Shown here in pieces: positions 21,028 to 36,876 of a stretch of DNA of 64,000 nt (positions are counted from its first letter, which is position 1; each line of letters starts with the position of its first letter). Position numbers and translations under genes: made by a program. Source of the stretch: Sulfuritalea sp. (lineage in GTDB: Bacteria; Pseudomonadota; Gammaproteobacteria; Burkholderiales; Rhodocyclaceae); contig JAMPYF010000004.1 in assembly GCA_023700805.1 (NCBI GenBank), positions 9,341 to 73,340 on the forward strand, given 5' to 3'. The notes under the pieces were generated by a model. That model saw only the letters and a program-made list of their open reading frames with translations, was not told where the DNA came from and ran no database searches.

Positions 21028-21205
21028 CGGCTTCAGTAAGGCACGGCGACTGCGGCGGCGAAACGGCGGTTCATGGCTTGCGGCCCTCGGCGAACAATGG
21101 CGCGCATTGTGAAGTGCGGCGGACCGCCGCCGCTGCGACAGAAAGCCGCATGCGGCCATCTGTCGCGCGGCATGTCGTCGCACATCGGCGGGTCCGGCCG
21201 GTTTG

Positions 21206-21219
21206 TTGAGCGCGATCAA
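21206..21219. promoter_or_regulatory. FNR/DNR-like box between divergent tonB and nirN
   Basis: TTGAG-CGCG-ATCAA. Confidence 0.7.
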
Positions 21220-21331
21220 GGACGCGCACCGGCATGCCGCTGCAGACTCGTGCTGCAGGCGCGCGCGGCCGATTCGAGCCGACGGTGCGCTAAGCTGCAG
21301 GCCGCGTTTCACTCGCAAATCCAAGGGGACG

Positions 21332-22987
21332 ATGCACAACATGAAGCCATCCTTCGCTGCCGCCGCGATCGCCGAACCGGCGACGCCCTGGAAAGTCCGC
21401 CTCCTGAAATGTGCCGCGAGTCTCGGCCTGCTGGCTTCCGCCGTGGTCGCAACGGGCGCCACTGCCGCCGATGCCCCGGCGCTCTACCAGCAGCATTGCG
21501 CGGTCTGCCACGGCGCCGGCCGGCTCGGCCTGACCGGGCCGGCGCTGCTGCCGGAAAGCCTCGCGCGGCTGAGGAAGCCCGAGGCGATCAAGACGATTGC
21601 CGCGGGCCGCGCCGCGACCCAGATGCTGGGTTTCGCCGACCGCCTGAGCAAGGAGGAGATCGCCGCGCTGGCCGACTACATCTATACCGCCGTGTCGCCA
21701 GCGCCAACTCTTGCAGAAGCCGACATCAAGGCCTCGCGCGTGGCCTATTTCGCGCCCGGCAGCCTGCCGGCCAAACCCGCCGCGGTGTTCCGGGGCGTGG
21801 ATATGATGAATCTGTTCATCGTGGTCGAGACCGGCGACCACCACGTCACGGTGCTCGACGGCGACAAGCTGGAGCCGATCCACCGCTTCCCCAGCCGCTA
21901 TGCGCTGCACGGCGGGCCGAAGTTCACGCCCGACGGACGCTATGTCTTCTTCGCTTCGCGCGACGGCTGGATCACCAAGTTCGACATCTGGAACCTCAAG
22001 GTGGTGGCGGAGATCCGCGCCGGCATCAACACGCGCAACGTCGCCGTCTCGGGCGACGGCAAGTACCTGGCGGTGGCCAACTACCTGCCGCATACGCTGG
22101 TGCTGCTCGATGCCGACCTGAACCTGCTCAAGGTGCATGAGGTGTGGGACAAGGAGCGCAAGGAAAGCTCACGCGTTTCCGCCGTGTATGACGCCGCGCC
22201 GCGCCAGAGCTTCGTCGCCGCGCTGAAGGACGTGCCCGAGGTCTGGGAGATCAGCTACAACCCGAAGGTCGACGACATCCCGGTCGGCATGGTGCATGAC
22301 TTCAAGTACAAGGAAGGCGCCTTCATTCCCGGCTTTCTCAATCCGCGCCGCACTTTCCTGTCCGAACCGCTCGACGACTTCTTCTTCACCCAGAACTATG
22401 CCGAGCTCATGGGCTCCTCGCGCTCCGCCGGCAAGGGCCAGGTGGTGCACCTCGACGTGCGCAAGAAGATCGCCGACCTCCAACTGCCCGGCATGCCGCA
22501 CCTGGGCTCGGGCATCACCTGGCAGTACAAGCCGCCGCAGGGCGCGCAGGATCGCACCGTGATGGCCACGCCCAACCTCAAGGAAGGCCTGGTCACCGTG
22601 ATCGACATGAAGGACTGGAGCACGGTCAAGACCATCCCGACCCTCGGCCCCGGCTTCTTCATGCGCAGCCACGAGAACACGCCCTACGCCTGGACCGATT
22701 CGATGATGTCGAAGGGCAAGGACACGCTGCAGGTGATCGACAAGCGCACGCTGGAGAAGGTCGCCGAAGTGAAGACCGATCCGGGCAAGACCCTGGCCCA
22801 CGTCGAATTCACGCGCGACGGCAAGTACGTGCTGGCCAGCCTGTGGGAGCGCAGGGCCGACGGCGGCGCGCTGATCGTGTTCGACGCCGCGACGTTCAGG
22901 GAAGTCAAGCGCATACCGATGGACAAGCCGGTCGGCAAGTACAACCTCTACAACAAGATCAACCGCTCGGAGGGCACCAGCCACTGA
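21332..22987 (+). CDS. nirN: NirN, c-type cytochrome with d1-binding beta-propeller (dihydro-heme d1 dehydrogenase)
   Basis: CAVCH heme c motif, ALHGGPKF, GMPHLGSG, C-terminal GKYNLYNKINRSEGTSH. Confidence 0.85.
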   Translation: MHNMKPSFAAAAIAEPATPWKVRLLKCAASLGLLASAVVATGATAADAPALYQQHCAVCHGAGRLGLTGPALLPESLARLRKPEAIKTIAAGRAATQMLGFADRLSKEEIAALADYIYTAVSPAPTLAEADIKASRVAYFAPGSLPAKPAAVFRGVDMMNLFIVVETGDHHVTVLDGDKLEPIHRFPSRYALHGGPKFTPDGRYVFFASRDGWITKFDIWNLKVVAEIRAGINTRNVAVSGDGKYLAVANYLPHTLVLLDADLNLLKVHEVWDKERKESSRVSAVYDAAPRQSFVAALKDVPEVWEISYNPKVDDIPVGMVHDFKYKEGAFIPGFLNPRRTFLSEPLDDFFFTQNYAELMGSSRSAGKGQVVHLDVRKKIADLQLPGMPHLGSGITWQYKPPQGAQDRTVMATPNLKEGLVTVIDMKDWSTVKTIPTLGPGFFMRSHENTPYAWTDSMMSKGKDTLQVIDKRTLEKVAEVKTDPGKTLAHVEFTRDGKYVLASLWERRADGGALIVFDAATFREVKRIPMDKPVGKYNLYNKINRSEGTSH

Positions 22988-25290: not shown

Positions 25291-25872
25291 TCATTTGCCG
25301 GCCAGCAGCAGCTTGAGGTCGGCGGCGATATTGGCCGGGGCTTCGCCATGGCGCAGCAGCAGGCGCAGCTTGCCCTGCGGATCGAAGGCGAAGCTGCCGG
25401 TGGAGTGATCGATGCTGTAGCTGCCCGGCGTCGAGCCGGGCTGCTTGGCATAGAACACCTTGAATTCCCTGGCCAGCGCGGCTATGCCATTTTCATCGGC
25501 GTAGAGGCCGAGGAAGCTCGGGTTGAAGGCCGGCACGTACTGCGCCAGCAGTTGCGGCGTGTCGCGCGCCGGGTCCACGGTGGCGAACAGCACCTGTACG
25601 CGTTTGGCATCTTCGCCGAGCAGCGCCATGGCGTCGCGCATGGTCGACAGCGTGGTGGGGCAGACGTCGGGGCACTGCGTGTAGCCGAAGAACAGCACCA
25701 CCGCCTTGCCCTTGAAATCGGCCAGGCGGCGCGGCTGGCCGTTGTGGTCGGTGAGGCTGAAATCCTTGCCCCAGTCGACCATCGACAGGTCGGTCGAGAC
25801 GAAACGCGGGGGTTCGGAACAGCCCGCCAGCAGCATGGCGCAGCAGAAAAAAATGGCCGACAGCAGTTTCAT
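25291..25872 (-). CDS. SCO1/SenC lipoprotein
   Basis: Lipobox LAGC, FFGYTQCPDVCPT, SIDH. Confidence 0.92.
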   Translation of the reverse strand: MKLLSAIFFCCAMLLAGCSEPPRFVSTDLSMVDWGKDFSLTDHNGQPRRLADFKGKAVVLFFGYTQCPDVCPTTLSTMRDAMALLGEDAKRVQVLFATVDPARDTPQLLAQYVPAFNPSFLGLYADENGIAALAREFKVFYAKQPGSTPGSYSIDHSTGSFAFDPQGKLRLLLRHGEAPANIAADLKLLLAGK

Positions 25873-25952: not shown

Positions 25953-27314
25953 GTGATAGTGAATTCGCATAATGTCGCAATTTCCGGCGAGGCGTCAAAA
26001 GCCCTTGCCAGGGCATGGTTGTGGCTGGGGCTGATGGCGCTCATCGGTTCCGGTCTGCTGGCCATTTTGCTGGTGCTCTCGCGCACGCCGGGAATCCAGG
26101 ACGTGTTCCCGCTGAAGGACTTTTTCCGCGCCGCGCTGGTGGTTCATGTGGACCTCTCGGTGGCGATATGGTTCATGGCCTTCGCCGCGGTGATCTGGAG
26201 CGCGCTGGGCCGCGACGGCTTTGCCTGGCTGGGCTGGGCCGGCTTCGCGCTGGCCGCGGCGGGCACCGCGCTGATGACCGTCTCGCCCTTCCTGCCGGGC
26301 GCCGATCCGGTGCTCAACAACTACATTCCGGTGTTGCAGCAAAAGTACTTCTATGCCGCGCTGTGGATCTGCGCGGCGGGTTTCGGCCTGGCCGTGCTGC
26401 GCGCGCTGCTCACCACCTGGCCGAAGCCCTTCCTCGGCGCGCCGCTGCAAAGCGGCGCCTTCCTCGGCGCGGTGGCGGCCTTTCTCGCACTGGCGGCCTT
26501 CGTCTGGTCCTGGATCGTGGTGCCGCGGATCGAGGAAAAGATTTATTTCGAAGTGCTGTTCTGGGGCGGCGGCCATACCCTGCAGTTCCAGCATGCGCTG
26601 CTGATGGTGGTGGCGTGGCTGTGGATTGCCAGCCATCTCGGCCGGCCCGCGGAGCAGGGGGCGGGGGGCGGGCTGCCGGTTTCCGCACGAGCGCTCTCCG
26701 CCATGTTCTGGATCGCCGCGCTGCCGTTGCTGGTGGTGCCGGCGATCTACTTCACGATTCCGGCCGGCGAACTGCCGCACATGGAGCTCTTCGCCAAGCT
26801 GATGATCTGGGGCCACCCCTACATGGCGCCGCTGATCCTGGTCGGCTTGCTTGCCGTCTGGGCCACGCGCCGGATGCCGCCCCATGCGGCCAAGTCGGCC
26901 TTCATCGCCTCCTTCTCGCTGTTCGCCGTGGGCGGCGTGCTGGCCTACATGATCCAGGGTGTGAACGTGGTGATCCCGGCCCACTATCACGGCTCCACCG
27001 TGGGCGTGACGCTGGCCTTCATGGGCCTGGCCTACGTGTTGCTGCCGCAACTCGGCTTCGGCGAAGTCGAAGGGCGCATGGCGCGCTGGCAGCCCTATGT
27101 CTATGGCGGCGGCCAGCTGATCCACATCCTCGGCCTGGCCTGGTCGGGCGGCTACGGCGTGCAGCGCAAGGTGGCCGGCGCCGAGCAGGCGCTGACCACG
27201 CTGCCGCAGAAGATCGGCATGGGCATGATGGGCCTGGGCGGCCTGATCGCCGTGATCGGCGGCATCATGTTCGTGCTGGTCTGCCTCAAGCTGATGCTGC
27301 CGCGCAAGCGCTGA
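25953..27314 (+). CDS. divergent heme-copper oxidase subunit I-like membrane protein
   Basis: Helix II VVH, helix VI LFWGGGH, helix X PAHYHG, YGVQRK; no helix VII HH pair. Confidence 0.7.
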   Translation: MIVNSHNVAISGEASKALARAWLWLGLMALIGSGLLAILLVLSRTPGIQDVFPLKDFFRAALVVHVDLSVAIWFMAFAAVIWSALGRDGFAWLGWAGFALAAAGTALMTVSPFLPGADPVLNNYIPVLQQKYFYAALWICAAGFGLAVLRALLTTWPKPFLGAPLQSGAFLGAVAAFLALAAFVWSWIVVPRIEEKIYFEVLFWGGGHTLQFQHALLMVVAWLWIASHLGRPAEQGAGGGLPVSARALSAMFWIAALPLLVVPAIYFTIPAGELPHMELFAKLMIWGHPYMAPLILVGLLAVWATRRMPPHAAKSAFIASFSLFAVGGVLAYMIQGVNVVIPAHYHGSTVGVTLAFMGLAYVLLPQLGFGEVEGRMARWQPYVYGGGQLIHILGLAWSGGYGVQRKVAGAEQALTTLPQKIGMGMMGLGGLIAVIGGIMFVLVCLKLMLPRKR

Positions 27315-27368: not shown

Positions 27369-27929
27369 CTACTGCTTGCGGCCGTACCTGCCGGTCAGCG
27401 TCGCCTTGCCTATGGAATTGGCATTGACCATGAAGCCGGCCAGCGATGCCGTCGCTCCGGCGGGCAGTTCGAGCTTGTCCACCTTCAGCGCGTGCAGCGT
27501 GAAGTTGTAGCGATGCGGCTTGTCGCCGACCGGCGGGCAGGGGCCGCCCCAGCCGGGGCCGCCGAAGTCGGTGGCGATCTGCGCCGCGCCCTTGGGCAGC
27601 GCCGAACCGTCGGCCTTGCCCGCGCCCTTGGGCAGTTCCGCGACATCGGCCGGAATGTTGGTCACCACCCAGTGCCACCAGCCGGCGCCGCCGGTCGGCG
27701 CGTCGGGGTCATGCACCAGCAGCGCGAAGCTCTTGGTGCCCTTGGGCGCGCCCGACCATTTCAAGCCGGGCGAGATGTTCTTGCCGCTGCAGCCGAAGCC
27801 CTGGAACACCTGCTCCTCGGCGATCGGCGCCGCGGCCTTGATGTCGTCGCTGCCGAGCTTGAATTTTTCGGCCTGGGCGCCGCCGGCCAGGGCCAGCCCT
27901 GCCGCCAGCAAAAGACCGTTACGGATCAT
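27369..27929 (-). CDS. YbhB/YbcL (PEBP) family exported protein
   Basis: HDPDAPTG, WWHW, GPCPP, PHRYNF. Confidence 0.92.
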   Translation of the reverse strand: MIRNGLLLAAGLALAGGAQAEKFKLGSDDIKAAAPIAEEQVFQGFGCSGKNISPGLKWSGAPKGTKSFALLVHDPDAPTGGAGWWHWVVTNIPADVAELPKGAGKADGSALPKGAAQIATDFGGPGWGGPCPPVGDKPHRYNFTLHALKVDKLELPAGATASLAGFMVNANSIGKATLTGRYGRKQ

Positions 27930-28157
27930 GATGGCTCTCCTTTCTGAATGAGATGGAGCAGCGATTCTAGAAGCATTGTCGGCGAGGCCGTGAAAGTTGG
28001 CGCTTGCCGGCCCGCGAAGCGGAATCCCCGGCAGACAGAGTCCGGCACGGCGCCGGCGGCCTCGCGTCGTGTTCGGCCGGTTCAACGTCAACAAGCAGTT
28101 GCGCATCAAGTCGCCGAGGACGCTGCCGCCGGTCGTCGGCAGGCATCTGGCGCAAGC

Positions 28158-28283
28158 ATGAACGCCGACTACGCCGGCGACCACGAGATCGTCGCGCGCT
28201 TTCTCGATCCGACCGACGCCTACCTGCTCTGTTCCTGTCTGAAGTACGAGCTGACCAAGCAACGCCTTGATCCATCTGCGTGA
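28158..28283 (+). pseudogene. truncated DUF2007-like gene fragment ending in a repeat motif
   Basis: EIVARFLDPTDAYLLCSCLK resembles a DUF2007 N-terminus, then runs into an ATCTGCG repeat pair (28274-28299). Confidence 0.45.
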
Positions 28284-28392: not shown

Positions 28393-30303
28393 TTATTTCG
28401 GCTGGAAGGCCATCGAGCGGGCCGAGATGGTGAAGGCGTCGGAGAAGCACATGCCTTCCTCGGCGCCCTGGTTTTTCAGAGTCGGGAAGATCGCCTCGAC
28501 CATTTTCACCGAGCCGCAGGCATAGATTTCGTGGCCCTTGAGGTCGGGGAAATCTTCCAGGATGGCTTCGTGCACCAGCCCGGTGCGACCGCTCCAGTGG
28601 TCGCCCGGCGCGGCATCGGAGATCACCGGGATGAAGTGGAAGTTGGCGTGCTCGCGCGCCCAGCCTTGCGGCAGTTCGGGCAGGTAGAGGTCGGCCAGCT
28701 GGCGCACGCCCCAGTAAAGATAGATCGGGCGCTTGAGGCCGCGCTGGAAGGCGTCCTCGACCATGCTCTTGACCGGGGCGAAGCCGGTGGCGCCGGCGAC
28801 GAAGACGATCGGGCGCTCGGATTCGCGCAGCGAGAAATCGCCCAGCGGACCTTCGAAGCTGACGGCATCGCCCACCTTCATCTGCTCGAAGACGTGGGTG
28901 GTGTAGCGGCCGCCGGGCATCAGGCGGATCTGCAGTTCGATCAGGTCGGACTGCTGCGGCGGATTGGCGAAGGAGAAGGCGCGGCGCTGGCCATCGTCGA
29001 GGATGATGTTGATGTACTGGCCGGCCTTGAAGGGAATATGCTGGCCTTCCGGCAACTTGAGCAGAACGCGCATCACGTCGTGGGTCAGCTTTTCCAGCTT
29101 CGCCACGTGGGCCGTGTATTGGCGGATGGCCTTAGGCGCGGCGGCCGCTTCATATTCGATCTCGACGTCGCCCAAGGCCGTCGCGCAGCACAGCAGCACC
29201 TTGCCGGCGGCGAGTTCCGCGGCCGACAGCGCGCTCGGCTGATACAGCCCGGGGTCGACATTGCCGGAGAGCACGGTGCATTTGCACTGCCCGCAGCCGC
29301 CGTTGCGGCATTCGTAGGGCAGGTTGATTTCCTGGCGCAGGCCGGCATCGAGCAGGGTTTCGTCGAAGCGGATGGCGACCGCCTTGTGGTCGGGGTGGAA
29401 GGTCACCGTCGCCTCGGCCTTGGCCGCGCCCATGCGCTTGGGCGGCAGCCAGGGGGCGAGGAACAGCAGGCCGGACAGGCCCAGGATGGCGAACCAGAGA
29501 TAGATCGGATCGACGACATAGACCAGGGCCAGCACCGGCATCTGGAACCAGTCGATGGCGATGTTGGTCGGCACCACCAGCATGTCGGCTTCGCCGCCCT
29601 GGCTGACCACCGGCTTGACCAGGGCCAGCACGACGAACATCGCCGTGAAGGCGATGGCGATCGCGCGCGGCGGATTGACATGGGCGCGCGGCACGCGCTG
29701 CACATGGACCCAGGCGATGACGCCGGCGATCAGCGGTGCGCCGAGGTGGATGAAGGCGAGCAGGGTGAACAGCCGGCTGGTGACGTTTTCCTGGTAGATG
29801 AAATTGCGGATCAGGGTGCCGTTGAACATCGGCAACGCATCGAACCATTCCGCGGTGGCGATGACGACGAACTGCGCCAGCTTGTCCCACACCAGCATGA
29901 AGCCGTTGAGGCCGGAGATGTAGACCAGCCAGATCAGCGCCACGCCGGTGGCCCAGGAGAACCAGCGGAAGCCGCGGTAACGGTCGTAGGCGAAGTGCCG
30001 CAGCATGTGCAGCAGCATGGTCAGGATCATGCCGTCGGTGGCATAGCGATGCACGCTGCGCATGATGCCGCCGGCCCACCACTGCTCGTGGGTGATGCGC
30101 TCGACCGATTCGTAGGCATCGTGCACGGCGGTGTCGGCGAAGACGTAGAGATAGATGCCGGTGCCGATCAGCAGCCAGAACTGCCAGAAGCTGATGGTGC
30201 CCAGGTGGTAGAAGGGATTGAGCTTCTCGCCGAAGGCCGCGTTGAACAGGTTCTCCGCACGCATGAAGAACCAGCGCACGAGTTTTTGGAGGTGGGTCAG
30301 CAT
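28393..30303 (-). CDS. cytochrome b + 2Fe-2S ferredoxin + FAD/NAD(P) reductase fusion
   Basis: RSVHRY...LLH and FIH...WVH heme ligands; CRNGGCGQC...C; RAFS, AGATGFAP, YACGS. Confidence 0.88.
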   Translation of the reverse strand: MLTHLQKLVRWFFMRAENLFNAAFGEKLNPFYHLGTISFWQFWLLIGTGIYLYVFADTAVHDAYESVERITHEQWWAGGIMRSVHRYATDGMILTMLLHMLRHFAYDRYRGFRWFSWATGVALIWLVYISGLNGFMLVWDKLAQFVVIATAEWFDALPMFNGTLIRNFIYQENVTSRLFTLLAFIHLGAPLIAGVIAWVHVQRVPRAHVNPPRAIAIAFTAMFVVLALVKPVVSQGGEADMLVVPTNIAIDWFQMPVLALVYVVDPIYLWFAILGLSGLLFLAPWLPPKRMGAAKAEATVTFHPDHKAVAIRFDETLLDAGLRQEINLPYECRNGGCGQCKCTVLSGNVDPGLYQPSALSAAELAAGKVLLCCATALGDVEIEYEAAAAPKAIRQYTAHVAKLEKLTHDVMRVLLKLPEGQHIPFKAGQYINIILDDGQRRAFSFANPPQQSDLIELQIRLMPGGRYTTHVFEQMKVGDAVSFEGPLGDFSLRESERPIVFVAGATGFAPVKSMVEDAFQRGLKRPIYLYWGVRQLADLYLPELPQGWAREHANFHFIPVISDAAPGDHWSGRTGLVHEAILEDFPDLKGHEIYACGSVKMVEAIFPTLKNQGAEEGMCFSDAFTISARSMAFQPK

Positions 30304-30334
30304 GATGTTTGTCCTGGAGTTTCGTAGGGCGTGT

Positions 30335-30853
30335 TCAGAGTTTGTTCGCGGCGCTTTGCTGGAAGAACAGGCCGCCCTTGTCCGGATTGAAGTCGACCAC
30401 CAGCACCTGCGCCGGCTTCAGCGTGACTCGTGCTTCCTTGGTGAAGTTGAACCCCGGATTGACCAGGTTGTCGTTCATTTTGACGGCCAGCTGGTAGGTT
30501 CCGGCCTTGATCTCGAAACGCTTATAGACGGTGGATACGCCGTCGCGCGAAAGCCCCGTCGGATGCATCACGGTTTCGAACATCGGCTTGCCGTCGAGTT
30601 CCAGCACCAGCTTGATGTCGGAACGCCCGCGCGGACAGTCCAGCGGCGCGCGCATGTTGGGCGGCAGCTTGGAAAGCTCCTCGGCGCTGCGCTTGCGGCA
30701 ATCGCGCCCGCCGAGATGGCTCATCGACAGCTTGATCAGCGCCACGTCGTCGGGAATCTGCTTGTAGGTCGGGTTGGTCGAGAAGTAGCCGATGAAGGCG
30801 GCGAACGCGCCGTAGAGGACGATCTGACCGGCGATGGCGGCGGGTTTAGCCAT
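30335..30853 (-). CDS. membrane-anchored periplasmic protein of unknown function (2 Cys)
   Basis: N-terminal TM; HLGGRDC...MRAPLDCPRGRS; host-like codon usage. Confidence 0.75.
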   Translation of the reverse strand: MAKPAAIAGQIVLYGAFAAFIGYFSTNPTYKQIPDDVALIKLSMSHLGGRDCRKRSAEELSKLPPNMRAPLDCPRGRSDIKLVLELDGKPMFETVMHPTGLSRDGVSTVYKRFEIKAGTYQLAVKMNDNLVNPGFNFTKEARVTLKPAQVLVVDFNPDKGGLFFQQSAANKL

Positions 30854-30967
30854 GATGGGTTCCTTCGCAGGGCCGTCCCGAAAAGGAACAGCCAGGTGTA
30901 TGGAGCGGGCATTGCCCGCGAACAATCGTCACCCCCGTCCTTGGGAAGGGGGTTGGGGGGAAGGTGG

Positions 30968-32542
30968 TCATCTTGTTCTCCTGGAGAAGGGGGGTGGCCG
31001 GGTGTTTTGCACCCATTGCATTTCGAGTCGGTTTCTGAATTCAGCGACGGCGGCGGCGAGCAGCCCGCCGTCGCCGCGCGAGGCATGGACCACCTGCAGG
31101 CGCTGCAGCGGCACCAGGCCGCGCAGATGAGGTTCGCGGCTGCGGGCGAGGCGTTCCCGCGTCCATTGCATGCCGAGGCGGAACTCGCAGCCGCCTTCGC
31201 GGCAGCCGGTGACGACGATGCCATCGGCGCCGCTGCGCAGTGCGTATTCGACGAAGGAGGGCGGCAGCATGCCGGTGCACAGCAGGCTGATGGCGGCGGT
31301 GTCGGCGGCGTCGAGGCCGCGCACATCGGCGCCCTTGTCGCAGCCGAAGACGACCAGCCGGGCCTGGCCCGGCGTCGGCGTTCCCCATGACGCCAGGCGC
31401 GCTTCGAGTTGCCGGCGCAGTGCGTCGACCGGCTGTTGCGGCATGTCGATGCCGGTCACGAGTTTTTCCTGGCTGCGGAAGGGCGTCGAGGAGGGGCAGG
31501 CGCCGGCGCAGATGCCGCAGCTGGCGCACAGGTCGGCGTCGACCACGGCGATCTTGTGGCCCGGTTTGTCGGGATGGATCGCCATGGTCACGGCCTCGTA
31601 GGGACAATCGGCGTGACAGCGGGCGCAGCCGTTGCAGTTCGCCGCATCGACCACGGCGACCGGCGCAGCAGCAGGATGGGGCAGGAAGGGCAGGGCGAAG
31701 AGCAGCAGGGTGGCGCCGAAGACCAGCCCCCACACCGCCGCCGGCGAACTGAGGTCGGTCAGCGGATGGATGAACAGCAAGAACCAGTCGAGCCGCAGTC
31801 CGTTCGGCACCAGGGCCAGGTCGGCCGGTGCGTCGGAAAGCGCCGGCTTGAGCAGGGCCAGCGCCAGGAAGCTGATCATGGTGGCCAGCATCAGGCGCCG
31901 CGAAGGCAGGTAATCGACCCGGCTGATGCGATTGACATGGGCCCAGAGGCCGAGGAGCAGCATCAGCGGGACGCCGATGTGGATGAACACCAGCACCGTG
32001 AAGAAGCGGTCGTTGATCGAATCCGGCGCGAGGAAGTTGCGCGCCGCGGGCTCGCTGAAAATCGGCAGCCAGTCGAGCAGTTCCGTGGTGGCGACGGCGG
32101 AGAACTGCGCCAGGCGGTCCCAGACGATCCAGTAGCCGCCGATGCCCGAGATGTAGGCAAACCAGATCAGCGGCACGCCGGTGATCCACGAATACAGGCG
32201 GAAGCCGTAGTAGCGGCCATGCGCCCACTCGCGCAGCAGATGCAGCATCATGACCAGCACGAAGGCATCGGCGGCATAGCGGTGCAGGCTGCGCAATATG
32301 CCCCCCAGATACCACTGCTCGCGCGACAGATAGTCGATCGAGCTGTACACGCCGTCGATGCTGGTGTCCAGCACGGTGTAGAGGTAGAGCCCGCTGGCGA
32401 CCAGGATCCAGAGGAAATACAGGCCGAGCGCGCCAAGGTGGCGCAGGGGATTGTCGGCGCCGCCGAAGTATCCATCGAAGAAATTCTCGATGCTGTCGAA
32501 GAGGGTTTGCGCGTTGCCGCGCAACACTGCGTGCAAGCTCAC
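30968..32542 (-). CDS. cytochrome b + 2x[4Fe-4S] + MvhD/FlpD-like domain fusion
   Basis: RSLHRY...LH, FIH...AH; CNGCARCHADCP, CASCGICAGACP; VFGC, LCTG, DGIVVTGCREGGCEF; start GTG 32542 or TTG 32599. Confidence 0.85.
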   Translation of the reverse strand: MSLHAVLRGNAQTLFDSIENFFDGYFGGADNPLRHLGALGLYFLWILVASGLYLYTVLDTSIDGVYSSIDYLSREQWYLGGILRSLHRYAADAFVLVMMLHLLREWAHGRYYGFRLYSWITGVPLIWFAYISGIGGYWIVWDRLAQFSAVATTELLDWLPIFSEPAARNFLAPDSINDRFFTVLVFIHIGVPLMLLLGLWAHVNRISRVDYLPSRRLMLATMISFLALALLKPALSDAPADLALVPNGLRLDWFLLFIHPLTDLSSPAAVWGLVFGATLLLFALPFLPHPAAAPVAVVDAANCNGCARCHADCPYEAVTMAIHPDKPGHKIAVVDADLCASCGICAGACPSSTPFRSQEKLVTGIDMPQQPVDALRRQLEARLASWGTPTPGQARLVVFGCDKGADVRGLDAADTAAISLLCTGMLPPSFVEYALRSGADGIVVTGCREGGCEFRLGMQWTRERLARSREPHLRGLVPLQRLQVVHASRGDGGLLAAAVAEFRNRLEMQWVQNTRPPPFSRRTR

Positions 32543-32626
32543 GTTGGGAGATTCCGTCAAGCCGGCACTGGAAGACGGCCGCCGACTATTAGCGGTCAAT
32601 GATATTTAAGTCGGAAGATTTCCGAC

Positions 32627-32640
32627 TTGACTGCAATCAA
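32627..32640. promoter_or_regulatory. FNR/DNR-like box upstream of the cytochrome b fusion genes
   Basis: TTGAC-TGCA-ATCAA. Confidence 0.8.
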
Positions 32641-32645
32641 CCGGA

Positions 32646-33611
32646 TCAAATCCTGTTGTCGCGTTTGCGCAGAAAGAAACTCCAGGCCAGCCAGCCCATG
32701 AAGAAAGTGAAGCTGATGAAGCCGCCGATCTCGAAGTACAGCGCGTAGTTGGTCCGGTATCTGCCGCTGACGGGGTCATACACCGAGCACAGGATCCGGA
32801 TGCGGTCGGCGATTTCGGCCAGGGTGCTGGTTTGCTGCGGTATCGGCGCGCCGGTGATCATCGCCTTGAGCGGCTCCGCAAGGTCCTCGGCGGTGAATTT
32901 CTCGCCATAGATCTGGCGGTAGATCCTGCCCTCGGCATCGACCAGGGTGACCTGGTTCACATGGTCGAATCCGGCGGTGGTGGCGACATAGCTGAAGCCG
33001 AAGTTCTGCGTCAGTTCGTCGACGATGGCCGGCGCCGGACTGAGGAAATCCCAGTTGGGCAGGTGGATGCCGTACTGGGTGGCAAAGGTCTTCATCGCCT
33101 GCGGCGAGTCGAAAGGCTGGTTGAAGCCGATGCTGACGATGTTGAAGCGATCCGCCCCGAGCATGCCGACGGTGTTCTCGACGGCCTTTTGCAGGTTCTT
33201 GGTGGTGGTGGGGCAGACCTGGAAGCAGGCGGTATAGACGAAATTCACCAGCAGCGGCTTGCCGCGGTACTTGGCCAGCGCCGTCGGCCGTTGCTGGCGG
33301 TCGAGCAGCACGTGATCGCCGACCGGCTGGCCGATCACGGCCTGCGAGCGCTTCAGCGCCGCCTGGGCGTCGAGCGTGGTGAGCGCGAGGCCGGTGCGCG
33401 CGCCTTGCGGCACCGCGGTGAGGCCCGGCGTGGTCGCCTTCGCCGTGTCACCATCCGCTACGGCGAGGAGAGCGTTTTTCGCTCGACCGCCTTGTAGCGC
33501 AGGGGCTTCATCAGCGCCAACTCCTGCGGCAGCGGCAAGCACGACTGCCGCGAGCGCGGCATGGAGCGAGAAACGGATCACGGGGATTGCCTGGCTAGAA
33601 GCGGGCGTCAA
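32646..33611 (-). CDS. SCO-family protein with C-terminal TM extension
   Basis: FVYTACFQVCP, GFDH, C-terminal TM helix. Confidence 0.85.
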   Translation of the reverse strand: MTPASSQAIPVIRFSLHAALAAVVLAAAAGVGADEAPALQGGRAKNALLAVADGDTAKATTPGLTAVPQGARTGLALTTLDAQAALKRSQAVIGQPVGDHVLLDRQQRPTALAKYRGKPLLVNFVYTACFQVCPTTTKNLQKAVENTVGMLGADRFNIVSIGFNQPFDSPQAMKTFATQYGIHLPNWDFLSPAPAIVDELTQNFGFSYVATTAGFDHVNQVTLVDAEGRIYRQIYGEKFTAEDLAEPLKAMITGAPIPQQTSTLAEIADRIRILCSVYDPVSGRYRTNYALYFEIGGFISFTFFMGWLAWSFFLRKRDNRI

Positions 33612-34485
33612 TGATGGCCGCGGTTAGCACCAGCGTCAACTGCGCCAGGGAGGCGTGGAAGCAACTCATCGCCGTGGCGCGGTTGGTGTTCTGCACCAGG
33701 CGCCAGGCCTTCAGGATGAACAGGAAGCCGCCGACGGCGGCGCCGGCGAAGTAGATCGCGCCGAGGCCGAAGGCCAGCGGCAGCAGGGAGGCCGCCACCA
33801 GGGCCAGGGTGCTGGCGAATATGGTCTTGGCCGCACGCTGGTCGCCGACCACCACGGGCAGCATGGGCACGCCGGCGGCCGCGTAGTCGTCGCGGTAGGC
33901 GATCGCCAGGCTCCAGAAGTGCGGCGGCGTCCACAGGAAGAGCACGAAGGCCAGCGCCAGCGGTACCGCGCCGACCTGCGGGTCGGCCGCCGTGGCGCCG
34001 GCCAGCACGGCCCAGCTGCCGGCCAGTCCGCCGAAGACGATGTTGAGCCAGGTGCGGCGCTTGAGCCAGACCGTATACACGATGGCGTAGAAGAAGGCGC
34101 CGAGAAAGGTGAACAGCGCCGCCCAGGCATTCAGTGCGAGCCAGGCTGCGCCGACCGAGATCGCCATGAGGCCGAAAATGACTGCCAGCCAGACCGGGCC
34201 GTGCTTGATTTCGCCGGTGGCGAAAGGCCGGTTCCTGGTGCGCGACATCAGCGGATCGATGTCGTGTTCGTAATACTGATTGAAGGCGCCGGCACTGGCC
34301 GAGGAAACCAGCACGGCCAGGGTCAGCGTGATCAGCTGGACCAGGCTCAGGCTGGGGCCGCCGCTTACCGACAGGCCCGCCAGTGCGGTGAAGGTGATGA
34401 CGACGCCGATGCGCAGCTTGAACAGTCCCGCGATGGCGCGGAAGGAGAGTCCGGAGGATCTGTTGGTGGGCAGCGTCGATTCCAT
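33595..34485 (-). CDS. ctaB: protoheme IX farnesyltransferase (heme o synthase)
   Basis: DIDPLMSRTRNRP, YTVWLKRRT, FLWTPPHFWSLA. Confidence 0.95.
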   Translation of the reverse strand: MESTLPTNRSSGLSFRAIAGLFKLRIGVVITFTALAGLSVSGGPSLSLVQLITLTLAVLVSSASAGAFNQYYEHDIDPLMSRTRNRPFATGEIKHGPVWLAVIFGLMAISVGAAWLALNAWAALFTFLGAFFYAIVYTVWLKRRTWLNIVFGGLAGSWAVLAGATAADPQVGAVPLALAFVLFLWTPPHFWSLAIAYRDDYAAAGVPMLPVVVGDQRAAKTIFASTLALVAASLLPLAFGLGAIYFAGAAVGGFLFILKAWRLVQNTNRATAMSCFHASLAQLTLVLTAAIIDARF

Positions 34486-34626: not shown

Positions 34627-36324
34627 TCAGCTGAGGCCCCAGACTTCGGACAGATACTTCCAATTCACGAAGTAGTAGAGCACGAAGCAGACCAGCAGCG
34701 TCATGGCCAGCACCACCGTGCCCGGCACGCCGATGTGCTCTTCGCTGCCGGTGTGGGATGCGGAAGACGCGGCGGACTGGTCGGGGATCGGCGTCGGCTT
34801 GTCGGACAGGGTGCCGCCGTCGAGCTTCTTGCCGAACAGCAGGGACCACACCACGAGGAAGATCCACAGGCCGCCGCCGATGACCGCGATCACGCCGAAG
34901 ATGCCGGTGAGACCCATCATCAGGTAGGCGGCGCCCGGCCATTCATACTGGAACGGTGCTCCGGAGAAGGCCATGTCCCAGTGCCGACGGGAGACGCCGA
35001 GGGTACCGGCGCCCATCATCACCAGGCCCAGCACCGACATGCTGATGCCGTAGAGGTAGGGCTGGATCTGGCACAGCTTGGGGAACATCATTTCACGCCT
35101 GAACAAGGTCGGCACCAGCAGGTAGGTGATCGACATGAAGGCCAGCGTGGTACCGACGACGACCGTGGTATGGAAGTGGCCCGGCACGTAGAAGGTGTTG
35201 TGCATCAGCATGTTGATCTGCTCGGTGCCCAGCACGACGCCGGAGATGCCGCCGAGGAAGCCGAAGCCGACCAGCGAGATGAACATGCCCGAGAACACCG
35301 GGTTGCCCCAGGGTGCCTTGCGCAGCCACTCGAACAGGCCGTTGGTGAAGCCCTTCTTGCGCTGTGCCGCTTCGATCGCGCCCGGAACCGTGAAGCCGTG
35401 GATCATCGAGGCGAGAACCGCGAAGTACATGAAGTAGGAGGTGTTCAGCACCTTCCACTCCGCGCTCATGCCCGGGTCGGACAGCAGGTGGTGCGCGCTG
35501 GCCAGCTGCAGGAACAGGATGTAGAGCAGGAAGGCGAAGCGCGACACTTTCTCGGACAGCGGTTTGGCGCCGAAGATCACGGCGGCCGTCAGATACCAGA
35601 TCGAGACGTGTGCGGCGACGTTGACCTGCTGCGAGGAGTGACCCAGCGCCCACCAGACCATGCGGTACAGCTGGGCGTCGATTTCCTTGATCCAGCCCAT
35701 CGACCAGGCGAAGGTCGGGATCAGGATCGCGGCGCCGGAAGCGATGGTGAATACCGCGATGATCGCCGCGGTCATGGCGCCGAAGGTGACCAGCGGCAGC
35801 GAACCGGTGTAGGTCTTGTCCTTCTTGGCCACTACCAGGGTGCCGAAGAACACCCCGGTTCCCAGCAGGGCGCCGACTGCCACCAGGATGATGCCCAGGT
35901 AGAAATGCGGCGCGGCCTGCATCGGCACGTAGGAGGTGAACATCACGGAGGACGAGCCCTGGAAGATGGCGACGTTGGTCATGATGCCGCCGACGACCAT
36001 CAGCCAGAATCCGAGCCAGGCCACTTTTGGAGTCGCAATCCGGCAGCGCAACAGGGTCGATGAGGCGAAGTAGAGCACCGCCATTTCGAAGAAGAGTATC
36101 CACAGGATCAGCATGTCGATGCCGTGGGCCGTCAGGATCAGGTAGAACTGGTCCGCCGGCAGCAGCTTGATCGCCGGCCAGCGGGTGAGGATCACCAAGA
36201 GGGCGGTGATGCCGCCCACCAGCAGCCAGAGCACGCCGGCTACGGCGTTCCAGCGCATCAGCTTGTCGGCATCGAGGTCGAACTGCAGCCCGGTGCGCGG
36301 ACAGGTACGGTAAGTAGTTGCCAT
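34627..36324 (-). CDS. B-family heme-copper subunit I, eNOR-type nitric oxide reductase
   Basis: All six His present (TAHG, GHSSQQ, AHH, GHFH); cross-linked Tyr position of HPxVY is Gln. Confidence 0.8.
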   Translation of the reverse strand: MATTYRTCPRTGLQFDLDADKLMRWNAVAGVLWLLVGGITALLVILTRWPAIKLLPADQFYLILTAHGIDMLILWILFFEMAVLYFASSTLLRCRIATPKVAWLGFWLMVVGGIMTNVAIFQGSSSVMFTSYVPMQAAPHFYLGIILVAVGALLGTGVFFGTLVVAKKDKTYTGSLPLVTFGAMTAAIIAVFTIASGAAILIPTFAWSMGWIKEIDAQLYRMVWWALGHSSQQVNVAAHVSIWYLTAAVIFGAKPLSEKVSRFAFLLYILFLQLASAHHLLSDPGMSAEWKVLNTSYFMYFAVLASMIHGFTVPGAIEAAQRKKGFTNGLFEWLRKAPWGNPVFSGMFISLVGFGFLGGISGVVLGTEQINMLMHNTFYVPGHFHTTVVVGTTLAFMSITYLLVPTLFRREMMFPKLCQIQPYLYGISMSVLGLVMMGAGTLGVSRRHWDMAFSGAPFQYEWPGAAYLMMGLTGIFGVIAVIGGGLWIFLVVWSLLFGKKLDGGTLSDKPTPIPDQSAASSASHTGSEEHIGVPGTVVLAMTLLVCFVLYYFVNWKYLSEVWGLS

Positions 36325-36336
36325 CTGTTTATCCCC

Positions 36337-36876
36337 TTATTTCACGTAAATACGGCCAAGCATCGTGTGGTGCCCGATGCCGCAGTATTCGTTGCAGACG
36401 ATGGCGTACGTGCCGGCCTTGGTCGGCGTCATCTTGACCACATGCTCATAGCCGGGAATGACCTGGATATTGATGTTGGTCGGCTGCAGCGAGAAGCCGT
36501 GGTTGTAGTCGACCGCCGACAGATGGATCTTGTAGGTCTTGCCGGCTTCCAGTTCCAGGATCGGATACCAGGCCCAGAGACGGGCCAGCAGGAAGGCCTC
36601 GCCATTGGCGTTCGGCTTGACCACCGGGATGTTCTGTTCCGTCTCGGTACGAATGGTGTTTTCCTTGACGAAGGCTTCGGTCTTCGCGGTAAACATTTCG
36701 GTCGTGGTCTTGTACACCTCGTTCGAAAGGTTCTGCTTACCGTTGATGTGCCAATAGACCATCATCACGAACATGATCATGGCCCAGACGAAGGCGATGC
36801 CGATCCAGGCCCATTCCTGGCCCGATATCGATTGTTTCCACCACAGCCGCTCTGAAGGCGGCAGGATTGCGCTCAT
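36337..36876 (-). CDS. subunit II with CuA centre
   Basis: Single TM; HGF and CNEYCGIGHHTM. Confidence 0.92.
   Translation of the reverse strand: MSAILPPSERLWWKQSISGQEWAWIGIAFVWAMIMFVMMVYWHINGKQNLSNEVYKTTTEMFTAKTEAFVKENTIRTETEQNIPVVKPNANGEAFLLARLWAWYPILELEAGKTYKIHLSAVDYNHGFSLQPTNINIQVIPGYEHVVKMTPTKAGTYAIVCNEYCGIGHHTMLGRIYVK

Follow-up and report, generated by a model that had tools for sequence, protein, structure and literature searches.

We examined a three-gene module that lies beside an eNOR-type haem-copper enzyme in a 64,000-nucleotide stretch of a Sulfuritalea sp. genome (contig JAMPYF010000004.1, positions 9,341 to 73,340; the whole stretch is called the window below). The module encodes two cytochrome b fusion proteins, CybFlpD and CybFNR, and a small membrane-anchored protein. 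Gene order in the window was established from coding-type GC content at third codon positions (GC3) together with Pfam scans. The module and the genes that bear on it are as follows:

36337-36876, minus strand: eNOR subunit II (CuA), with the CuA motif CNEYCGIGHHTM
34627-36324, minus strand: eNOR-type haem-copper subunit I, with WWALGHSSQQ in helix VI
33595-34485, minus strand: haem O synthase of the CtaB/UbiA family, from the Pfam scan
32646-33611, minus strand: SCO-like copper chaperone, with CFQVCP followed by a distal H, an N-terminal signal or anchor and a C-terminal transmembrane helix
32627-32640, minus strand: FNR/Dnr-type box TTGATTGCAGTCAA, between the SCO-like stop codon and CybFlpD
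30968-32599, minus strand: CybFlpD (P0001, 543 aa), cytochrome b with two [4Fe-4S] motifs and an MvhD/FlpD domain
30335-30853, minus strand: small subunit (P0002, 172 aa), transmembrane anchor and periplasmic beta-sandwich
28393-30303, minus strand: CybFNR (P0003, 636 aa), cytochrome b with [2Fe-2S], FAD and NAD(P)H domains
25953-27314, plus strand, divergent: COX1deg, a degenerate haem-copper subunit I paralogue that keeps its haem His ligands

CybFlpD, the small gene and CybFNR are co-oriented minus-strand open reading frames (ORFs) with a coding-type GC3 of 0.82-0.88. A previous reading of the letters of this DNA and of its translated ORFs, made with no database search (the sequence-only reading), had proposed three co-oriented genes here, and this is confirmed. 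The domain composition that it gave for the two cytochrome b fusions is borne out by Pfam and NCBIfam: Cytochrome_B, two Fer4 motifs and FlpD in CybFlpD, and Cytochrome_B, Fer2, FAD_binding_6 and NAD_binding_1 in CybFNR. The FlpD domain scores 52 bits, and residues 314-526 of CybFlpD match residues 571-769 at the C-terminus of HdrA2. The reductase part of CybFNR resembles BenC, NqrF and Fre, with 196 bits to the Fre model and 136 bits to that of NqrF. CybFNR shares 77-92% identity with proteins from Sulfuritalea, Dechloromonas and Accumulibacter, the 92% match being a protein of a Sulfuritalea metagenome-assembled genome (MAG). Translation of CybFlpD probably begins some 18-20 codons after the annotated TTG (32599).

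The neighbouring haem-copper enzyme fits eNOR as that family has been defined (Murali et al. 2024, PMC11214002), judging from a predicted subunit I that lacks the cross-link Tyr and a CuA-type subunit II. Subunit I carries GHSSQQ in helix VI, HH at 278 and GHFH at 382; the helix VI sequence WWALGHSSQQ leaves no cross-link Tyr in this subunit.

Co-occurrence of the module with eNOR was assessed in fixed samples of 401 genomes of the window's order, 401 genomes of its phylum and 191 Chloroflexota. In the order sample, eNOR and CybFlpD are held by the same 50 of 401 genomes with none discordant. A ceiling of 50 on the count was considered as an artefact behind this match and ruled out, since a later search gave 53 genomes. 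In the phylum sample, 49 genomes have both, one has eNOR only and four have the cytochrome b only, these four being MAGs in 240-730 contigs. The eNOR orthologues that co-occur with the cytochrome b genes span 46-91% identity, and 13 of 13 metagenome loci that were reached only via the cytochrome b part have an adjoining eNOR. Co-occurrence, which the sequence-only reading had set as a check on its proposal, is therefore near-perfect in the order, the phylum and the metagenome loci. The three genes also behave as the single unit that had been proposed: among 80 Rhodocyclaceae loci, the small gene and CybFNR follow CybFlpD in all 67 with enough flank. eNOR lies upstream of the trio in 48 of 55 Rhodocyclaceae loci, and one further locus is probably masked. 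Six of the seven loci without an upstream match belong to Accumulibacter; they were considered as proof that the trio is independent of eNOR, and this was rejected because all five of the genomes checked encode an eNOR subunit I of about 90% identity elsewhere. In nearly all loci, the gene directly upstream of CybFlpD is the SCO-like one. Since the module accompanies eNOR in almost every genome examined, it is probably the electron-transfer or maturation partner of this enzyme. eNOR is a widespread and only recently characterised source of N2O, and a module present in nearly every sampled Pseudomonadota genome with eNOR is the evident place to look for the means by which the enzyme is supplied or assembled.

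The closest solved structures for both membrane parts are cytochromes b6, with spinach b6 the best, and the four His ligands align. Invariance was assessed in 15 FlpD-type and 6 FNR-type sequences from several families. The haem His residues (H106, H120, H207 and H221 in the FlpD type; H85, H99, H186 and H200 in the FNR type) are invariant throughout, in agreement with the four His ligands previously noted in each domain. The eight Cys of the two CxxCxxCxxxCP motifs of the FlpD type, C420, C441, C466 and C471 of the FlpD domain, and the plant-type [2Fe-2S] Cys of CybFNR are invariant as well. A conserved feature missed by the sequence-only reading is a Qo-like motif in the ef loop, LDWF in CybFlpD and IDWF in CybFNR. 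Its D-W-F is invariant in Pseudomonadota and its Asp is invariant family-wide; in the wider family the domain architecture and the motif Asp persist down to 28% identity. Both cytochrome b parts end after helix F, with six transmembrane helices (A-F), and are followed by soluble Fe-S domains. The position of the haem cn Cys is occupied by H, Y, C, Q or F. As judged from these sequences, each is a cytochrome b with two b-haems spanning the membrane, a Qo-like pocket at the periplasmic side and a cytoplasmic C-terminus. By analogy with cytochrome b in bc complexes, CybFlpD and CybFNR most likely form a heterodimer.

The small subunit consists of an N-terminal transmembrane helix and a beta-sandwich (AlphaFold2 model, pLDDT 92), and the sandwich is placed in the periplasm because fusion variants described below end in a cytochrome c. 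It has no Pfam or NCBIfam match. Foldseek and VIA-align gave generic beta-sandwich matches only, the best (Z 8.7) to an unrelated human enzyme, and a protein atlas search for it returned only hypothetical proteins. It had previously been described as an anchored periplasmic protein with two Cys; the anchor and the periplasmic domain stand, but a conserved Cys pair and a role for it do not, as the two Cys are not conserved and are absent in two loci (L084 and L085). Invariant in the alignment are only H46 and several Arg and Asp residues, and no conserved metal ligands were found there. A role of this subunit as a substitute for a Rieske or copper site was considered and rejected, since the Cys pair is missing in some lineages and the fold matches are generic.

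No Rieske motif was found in the window, where NirS is the sole c-type cytochrome, and the cytochrome c1 of the same genome sits on another contig. Both absences had been stated in the sequence-only reading, and they place the trio outside the bc1/b6f complexes. Nor was a Rieske gene seen in related loci among the queries used. The trio shares helices A-F, the four His ligands and an acidic ef-loop motif with the cytochrome b of bc1 and b6f, whereas it lacks the Rieske protein, cytochrome c1 or f, helices G-H, the third helix of subunit IV and the haem cn Cys, and its Qi side is taken by the fused Fe-S domains.

Comparison with other lineages showed that the core of the module is CybFlpD plus the small subunit. 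CybFNR is confined to the window's order, so that its standing as a core subunit, as the sequence-only reading had it, was not upheld. One family of ~2-Mb genomes has two tandem FlpD-type paralogues, and in other families CybFlpD occurs only once, in some cases at a distance from eNOR. In a tree of cytochrome b domains, the copies fused to FNR fall into a single clade (100/100) that parallels the FlpD-type clade from that order. The tandem FlpD pair is a duplication of its own, and a copy fused to a CPR-type reductase stands apart. This pattern indicates that a second cytochrome b paralogue arose at least three times, which fits the heterodimer that had been suggested from the window alone. 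The CPR-fused protein (P0161, 827 aa; L104:10001-12481, plus strand) is the single full-length copy found. In it, a flavodoxin-FAD-NADPH part of the CPR/CysJ type replaces Fer2-FAD-NAD after the cytochrome b, and it holds the same position as CybFNR in an otherwise typical eNOR cluster on a 132-kb metagenome contig.

In Chloroflexota, nine of the sampled genomes have an eNOR-like subunit I. In one clade, four of five eNOR genomes encode a fused form of ~700 aa, adjacent to eNOR in three, in which a seventh helix leads from the C-terminal end of the cytochrome b protein into the small protein. Between eNOR and the cytochrome b gene lie genes for a P1B Cu-ATPase and for a DsbD_2 protein that resembles CcdA. 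Three family members have no adjacent eNOR, two of these in genomes with no eNOR match. A further Chloroflexota variant (L102:6774-9197, minus strand) is an 807-aa chain of cytochrome b, two 4Fe-4S motifs, FlpD, a transmembrane helix, a small-type domain and a cytochrome c (CRICH). It directly follows a B-family O2 reductase (GHPLVY; L102:9300-11021, minus strand) and two SCO genes, with a cytochrome bd subunit I downstream. A cytochrome c with a CxxCH motif must be periplasmic, and this fixes the topology, with the Fe-S domains inside and the small domain outside. The same variant shows that eNOR is not the only B-type haem-copper enzyme with which the family can pair. Separately, a 7.6-kb contig labelled Chloroflexota (L053; DAISHS010000206.1) encodes proteins 72-80% identical to the Rhodocyclaceae trio, and elsewhere, on contig C9, the same MAG carries a separate and distant member of the family (31% identity). 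L053 looks like a binning error.

The FNR/Dnr-type box upstream of the trio is not significant when taken alone (two or more matches in 20 of 100 shuffles). It is kept at the same intergenic place with at most one mismatch in 31 of 41 Rhodocyclaceae loci, and nearly all of the others carry a palindromic variant, TTGAC-N4-GTCAA. Conservation extends to Accumulibacter loci in which the trio has moved away from eNOR. The FNR-like box previously noted at this position is thus both present and shared with relatives. A perfect hairpin (GTCGGAA atc TTCCGAC; 32604-32620, minus strand) lies between the box and the annotated TTG start of CybFlpD. A second FNR-like box, TTGAGCGCGATCAA, with one mismatch, is found at 21206-21219 at the start of the nirS ORF region.

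The trio is a further member of an already documented family, with fusions published in 2014 and related proteins reported from Accumulibacter in 2006 and Ferrigenium in 2026. The statement in the sequence-only reading that MvhD/FlpD domains are not known from cytochrome b does not hold: a "PDWF-FeS" clade was described with cytochrome b, 4Fe-4S and MvhD in Magnetospirillum and Turneriella, and with cytochrome b, ferredoxin and flavin reductase in Alicycliphilus (Kao & Hunte 2014, PMC4122944). Both architectures, a DWF-type Qo motif and the lack of a Rieske gene in the cluster are common to that clade and to our locus; the first motif position is P there and L or I here. The trio has the four-His di-haem cytochrome b, the DWF motif and the non-Rieske C-terminal Fe-S module that characterise the clade, and it is encoded alongside an eNOR-type enzyme and a small anchored protein, as seen in the window layout, the co-occurrence and the synteny. 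Large proteins with a cytochrome b domain and no assigned function were also listed by Dibrova 2017 (PMC5600118) and are probably of the same clade. These two studies catalogue the proteins only, giving no eNOR link, small subunit or function.

The eNOR operon of Ferrigenium straubiae (bioRxiv 10.64898/2026.01.22.701106) comprises eNOR II, eNOR I, haem O synthase, sco1, a cyt b-FeS-FAD-NADH gene and a cyt b-FeS gene. It follows the same operon logic as the window, and its gene order matches that of locus L090. The preprint regards the two cytochrome b genes as "rather unusual" and as possible markers of Ferrigenium, whereas we find them in essentially every eNOR genome examined in the phylum. 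On sequence grounds, CybFNR is very probably the "novel quinol reductase" of Accumulibacter (Garcia-Martin 2006; Skennerton 2015, as cited in PMC4930944), which was proposed to re-oxidise quinol for the anaerobic tricarboxylic acid (TCA) cycle; eNOR is not mentioned in the passages cited there. The Accumulibacter and Propionivibrio proteins are 77-80% identical to CybFNR of the window, and every Accumulibacter genome checked holds eNOR. Our results bear on the "quinol reductase" hypothesis because that protein is part of the eNOR gene set. Our additions are the co-occurrence figures from genome samples, the finding that the small protein can be fused to cytochrome b, the variants with cytochrome c or CPR, the conservation of the FNR-type box and the assignment of COX1deg to the gene set.

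Other systems resemble parts of the trio. The NOX/FRE family, MsrQ with Fre, and NqrF likewise have a cytoplasmic NAD(P)H-flavin module feeding a membrane di-haem or a membrane complex, but the membrane domain of CybFNR is an unrelated, bc-type cytochrome b and the likeness to NOX/FRE and YedZ is one of analogy, not homology. Pfam gives Cytochrome_B only for the membrane parts of the trio, and no ferric-reductase transmembrane domain was found in them. The Mvh/Hdr and Flx/Hdr complexes share the MvhD-type domain with its four conserved Cys. HdrA, HdrB, HdrC or hydrogenase partners were not seen among the genes annotated around the cluster, and no whole-genome search for HdrA was made.

Our tentative interpretation, built on the sequence evidence above, is that the trio may be a Rieske-less cytochrome b complex belonging to the eNOR system, in which electrons would flow outward from the cytoplasm to the periplasmic face and serve eNOR. 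The domains, cofactor ligands, topology, conserved gene set, FNR-type box and co-occurrence with eNOR are established by the data above; the heterodimer, the direction of flow and the acceptor are what we infer. The module would be under FNR/Dnr control. Cytoplasmic reducing equivalents would enter at the n-side haem, coming from NAD(P)H via CybFNR and from a further donor via the MvhD domain ([2Fe-2S]). The haem pair would then carry them across the membrane, to the haem on the p-side or to the Qo-like pocket, from which they could be delivered to eNOR at CuA or the low-spin haem, either directly or via a bound quinone. Less likely, they would supply reductant for the assembly of eNOR Cu, Fe or haem.

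Several observations speak for this outward flow. Reductase modules of the BenC/NqrF/Fre type and of the CPR/CysJ type are established NAD(P)H-oxidising electron inputs. The recruitment of two such unrelated modules, one BenC/NqrF-like and one CPR-like, to the same position favours the NAD(P)H-to-periplasm direction and makes it plausible as read from the sequences. The Chloroflexota variant with a periplasmic cytochrome c counts in its favour, as does the detection of all four proteins in the proteome of denitrifying Ferrigenium (bioRxiv 10.64898/2026.01.22.701106).

The points that weigh against outward flow to eNOR are also considerable. The CuA subunit is normal and the genome has a bc1 (cytochrome c1 was found), so a conventional donor route is available. 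Outward flow from NAD(P)H skips coupling sites and wastes energy. Many lineages have CybFlpD and the small subunit only and thus lack an NAD(P)H domain, so NAD(P)H is not a universal donor. A plain wire needs neither helices E-F nor an invariant Qo-like Asp, which points to quinone chemistry. Purified eNOR of R. marinus is active with two subunits (PMC11214002 and preprint). No fusion was found in the other Chloroflexota eNOR clade, and with four or five Chloroflexota eNOR genomes lacking the module, it is not obligatory for eNOR. Finally, the genes lie among assembly genes, namely CtaB and SCO, and in Chloroflexota those for the CcdA-like protein and the Cu-ATPase.

This last point leads to the alternative that survives best, although we consider it unlikely: that the trio is a maturation factor, acting across the membrane as a metallo- or thiol-reductase in the manner of CcoG of the cbb3 oxidase. 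Outward electrons would then keep Cu(I)/Fe(II) or an SCO-like chaperone reduced, so that CuA, haem As or the metal of the active site could be assembled into eNOR during denitrification. CcoG is an Fe-S cupric reductase with two cytoplasmic [4Fe-4S] clusters and no haems, encoded with the assembly genes of the cbb3 oxidase. The trio would resemble it, by analogy, in being membrane-bound, in having two cytoplasmic [4Fe-4S] clusters and in being encoded downstream of a haem-copper enzyme with Cu-handling genes. The cytochrome b genes always come after the structural genes and among assembly genes, which are CtaB and SCO-like in Pseudomonadota, with the SCO-like gene immediately upstream in nearly all loci, and the DsbD_2 protein and P1B Cu-ATPase in Chloroflexota. 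Purified eNOR comprises two subunits, and an eNOR cluster without the module (L100) has a CtaA-CtaB fusion instead. On the other side, two cytochromes b with up to seven cofactors and a conserved Qo-like motif are heavy for a chaperone-type role, and Pfam shows no sequence similarity of the trio to CcoG. The proteins are detectable in the proteome alongside eNOR, and the variant with a periplasmic cytochrome c beside a B-family oxidase looks like a respiratory donor.

The CtaA-CtaB (haem A synthase - haem O synthase) fusion at L100:10443-12311 (plus strand) directly follows subunit I. This single locus hints at an either/or pattern of the fusion and the cytochrome b module. The idea that the module replaces haem A synthase was considered, and it is weakened by CtaA homologues on two other contigs of the Sulfuritalea genome.

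Quinol bifurcation, which we hold to be unlikely and slightly less probable than maturation, would run the other way: quinol would be oxidised at the Qo-like site, one electron passing to the strongly oxidising eNOR branch and the other through the b-haems and Fe-S centres to NAD(P)+ or a low-potential cytoplasmic acceptor. Many of the hosts are lithoautotrophs that need reverse electron flow, which counts in favour of such a reaction. Throughout the family helices E-F are kept, and the motif equivalent to PEWY has an Asp that never varies. Proposals of this kind have been published, as the "quinol:NAD+ oxidoreductase / supercomplex" of the Ferrigenium preprint (bioRxiv 10.64898/2026.01.22.701106) and the "quinol reductase" of Accumulibacter. 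In the cytochrome b phylogeny of Kao & Hunte 2014 (PMC4122944) these proteins appear with a Qo motif, and a precedent exists in anammox, where Rieske/cytochrome b complexes include subunits that are NAD(P) oxidoreductases (PMC5600118). The Qo site, however, is accompanied by no Rieske or other high-potential centre, and the small subunit has no conserved metal ligands. Moving electrons inward against the membrane potential, together with a climb of ~400 mV, is thermodynamically demanding; modules of the BenC, NqrF and CPR types are known as NAD(P)H oxidisers; and the lineages with CybFlpD only have no NAD(P) site. A stronger form, in which the module and eNOR would make up a Rieske-less, Q-cycle-like bifurcating supercomplex where NO reduction pulls one quinol electron and the other makes NAD(P)H or reduced ferredoxin, strikes us as distinctly improbable. 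If true, it would give lithoautotrophic denitrifiers a new route of energy coupling.

COX1deg, whose membership in the gene set was missed by the sequence-only reading, retains the haem His ligands and has lost the HH pair of helix VII; it has no subunit II of its own. In 44 of 55 Rhodocyclaceae loci it is encoded no more than 10 kb away, it is present in 11 of 13 metagenome loci, and all five genomes examined whose cluster is without it have it elsewhere, which makes it a member of the conserved gene set. In six loci (L084, L085, L088, L089, L090 and L095) it is found 3' of the small gene and co-oriented with it. That the complex mainly serves COX1deg, passing electrons laterally to its two haems for some unspecified reaction or for haem handling, is very doubtful: its co-oriented position 3' of the small gene in many lineages, its presence in most loci and elsewhere in the five genomes whose cluster lacks it, its lack of a subunit II and its continued adjacency to the trio in Accumulibacter loci where the trio is away from eNOR (L071, L072 and L074) would suit this, but the Chloroflexota fusion clusters give only cross-matches inside the eNOR subunit I gene, none lies near the variant beside the B-family oxidase, and co-occurrence with eNOR is equally tight. 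Every lineage checked has COX1deg together with the eNOR/cytochrome b set, and there is no NCBIfam model for this protein. The genome has a second copy on another contig (C45:89491-90807; 40% identity).

Three further genes were located in this part of the window:

27369-28262, minus strand: PEBP/YbhB-family gene, 3' of CybFNR
25291-25872: second SCO gene
21203-22987: nirS

The PEBP/YbhB-family gene follows CybFNR only in the closest relatives (L004, L005, L006, L008, L025 and L031) and thus falls outside the conserved set. Its product carries an extension of ~150 aa that includes a hydrophobic segment.

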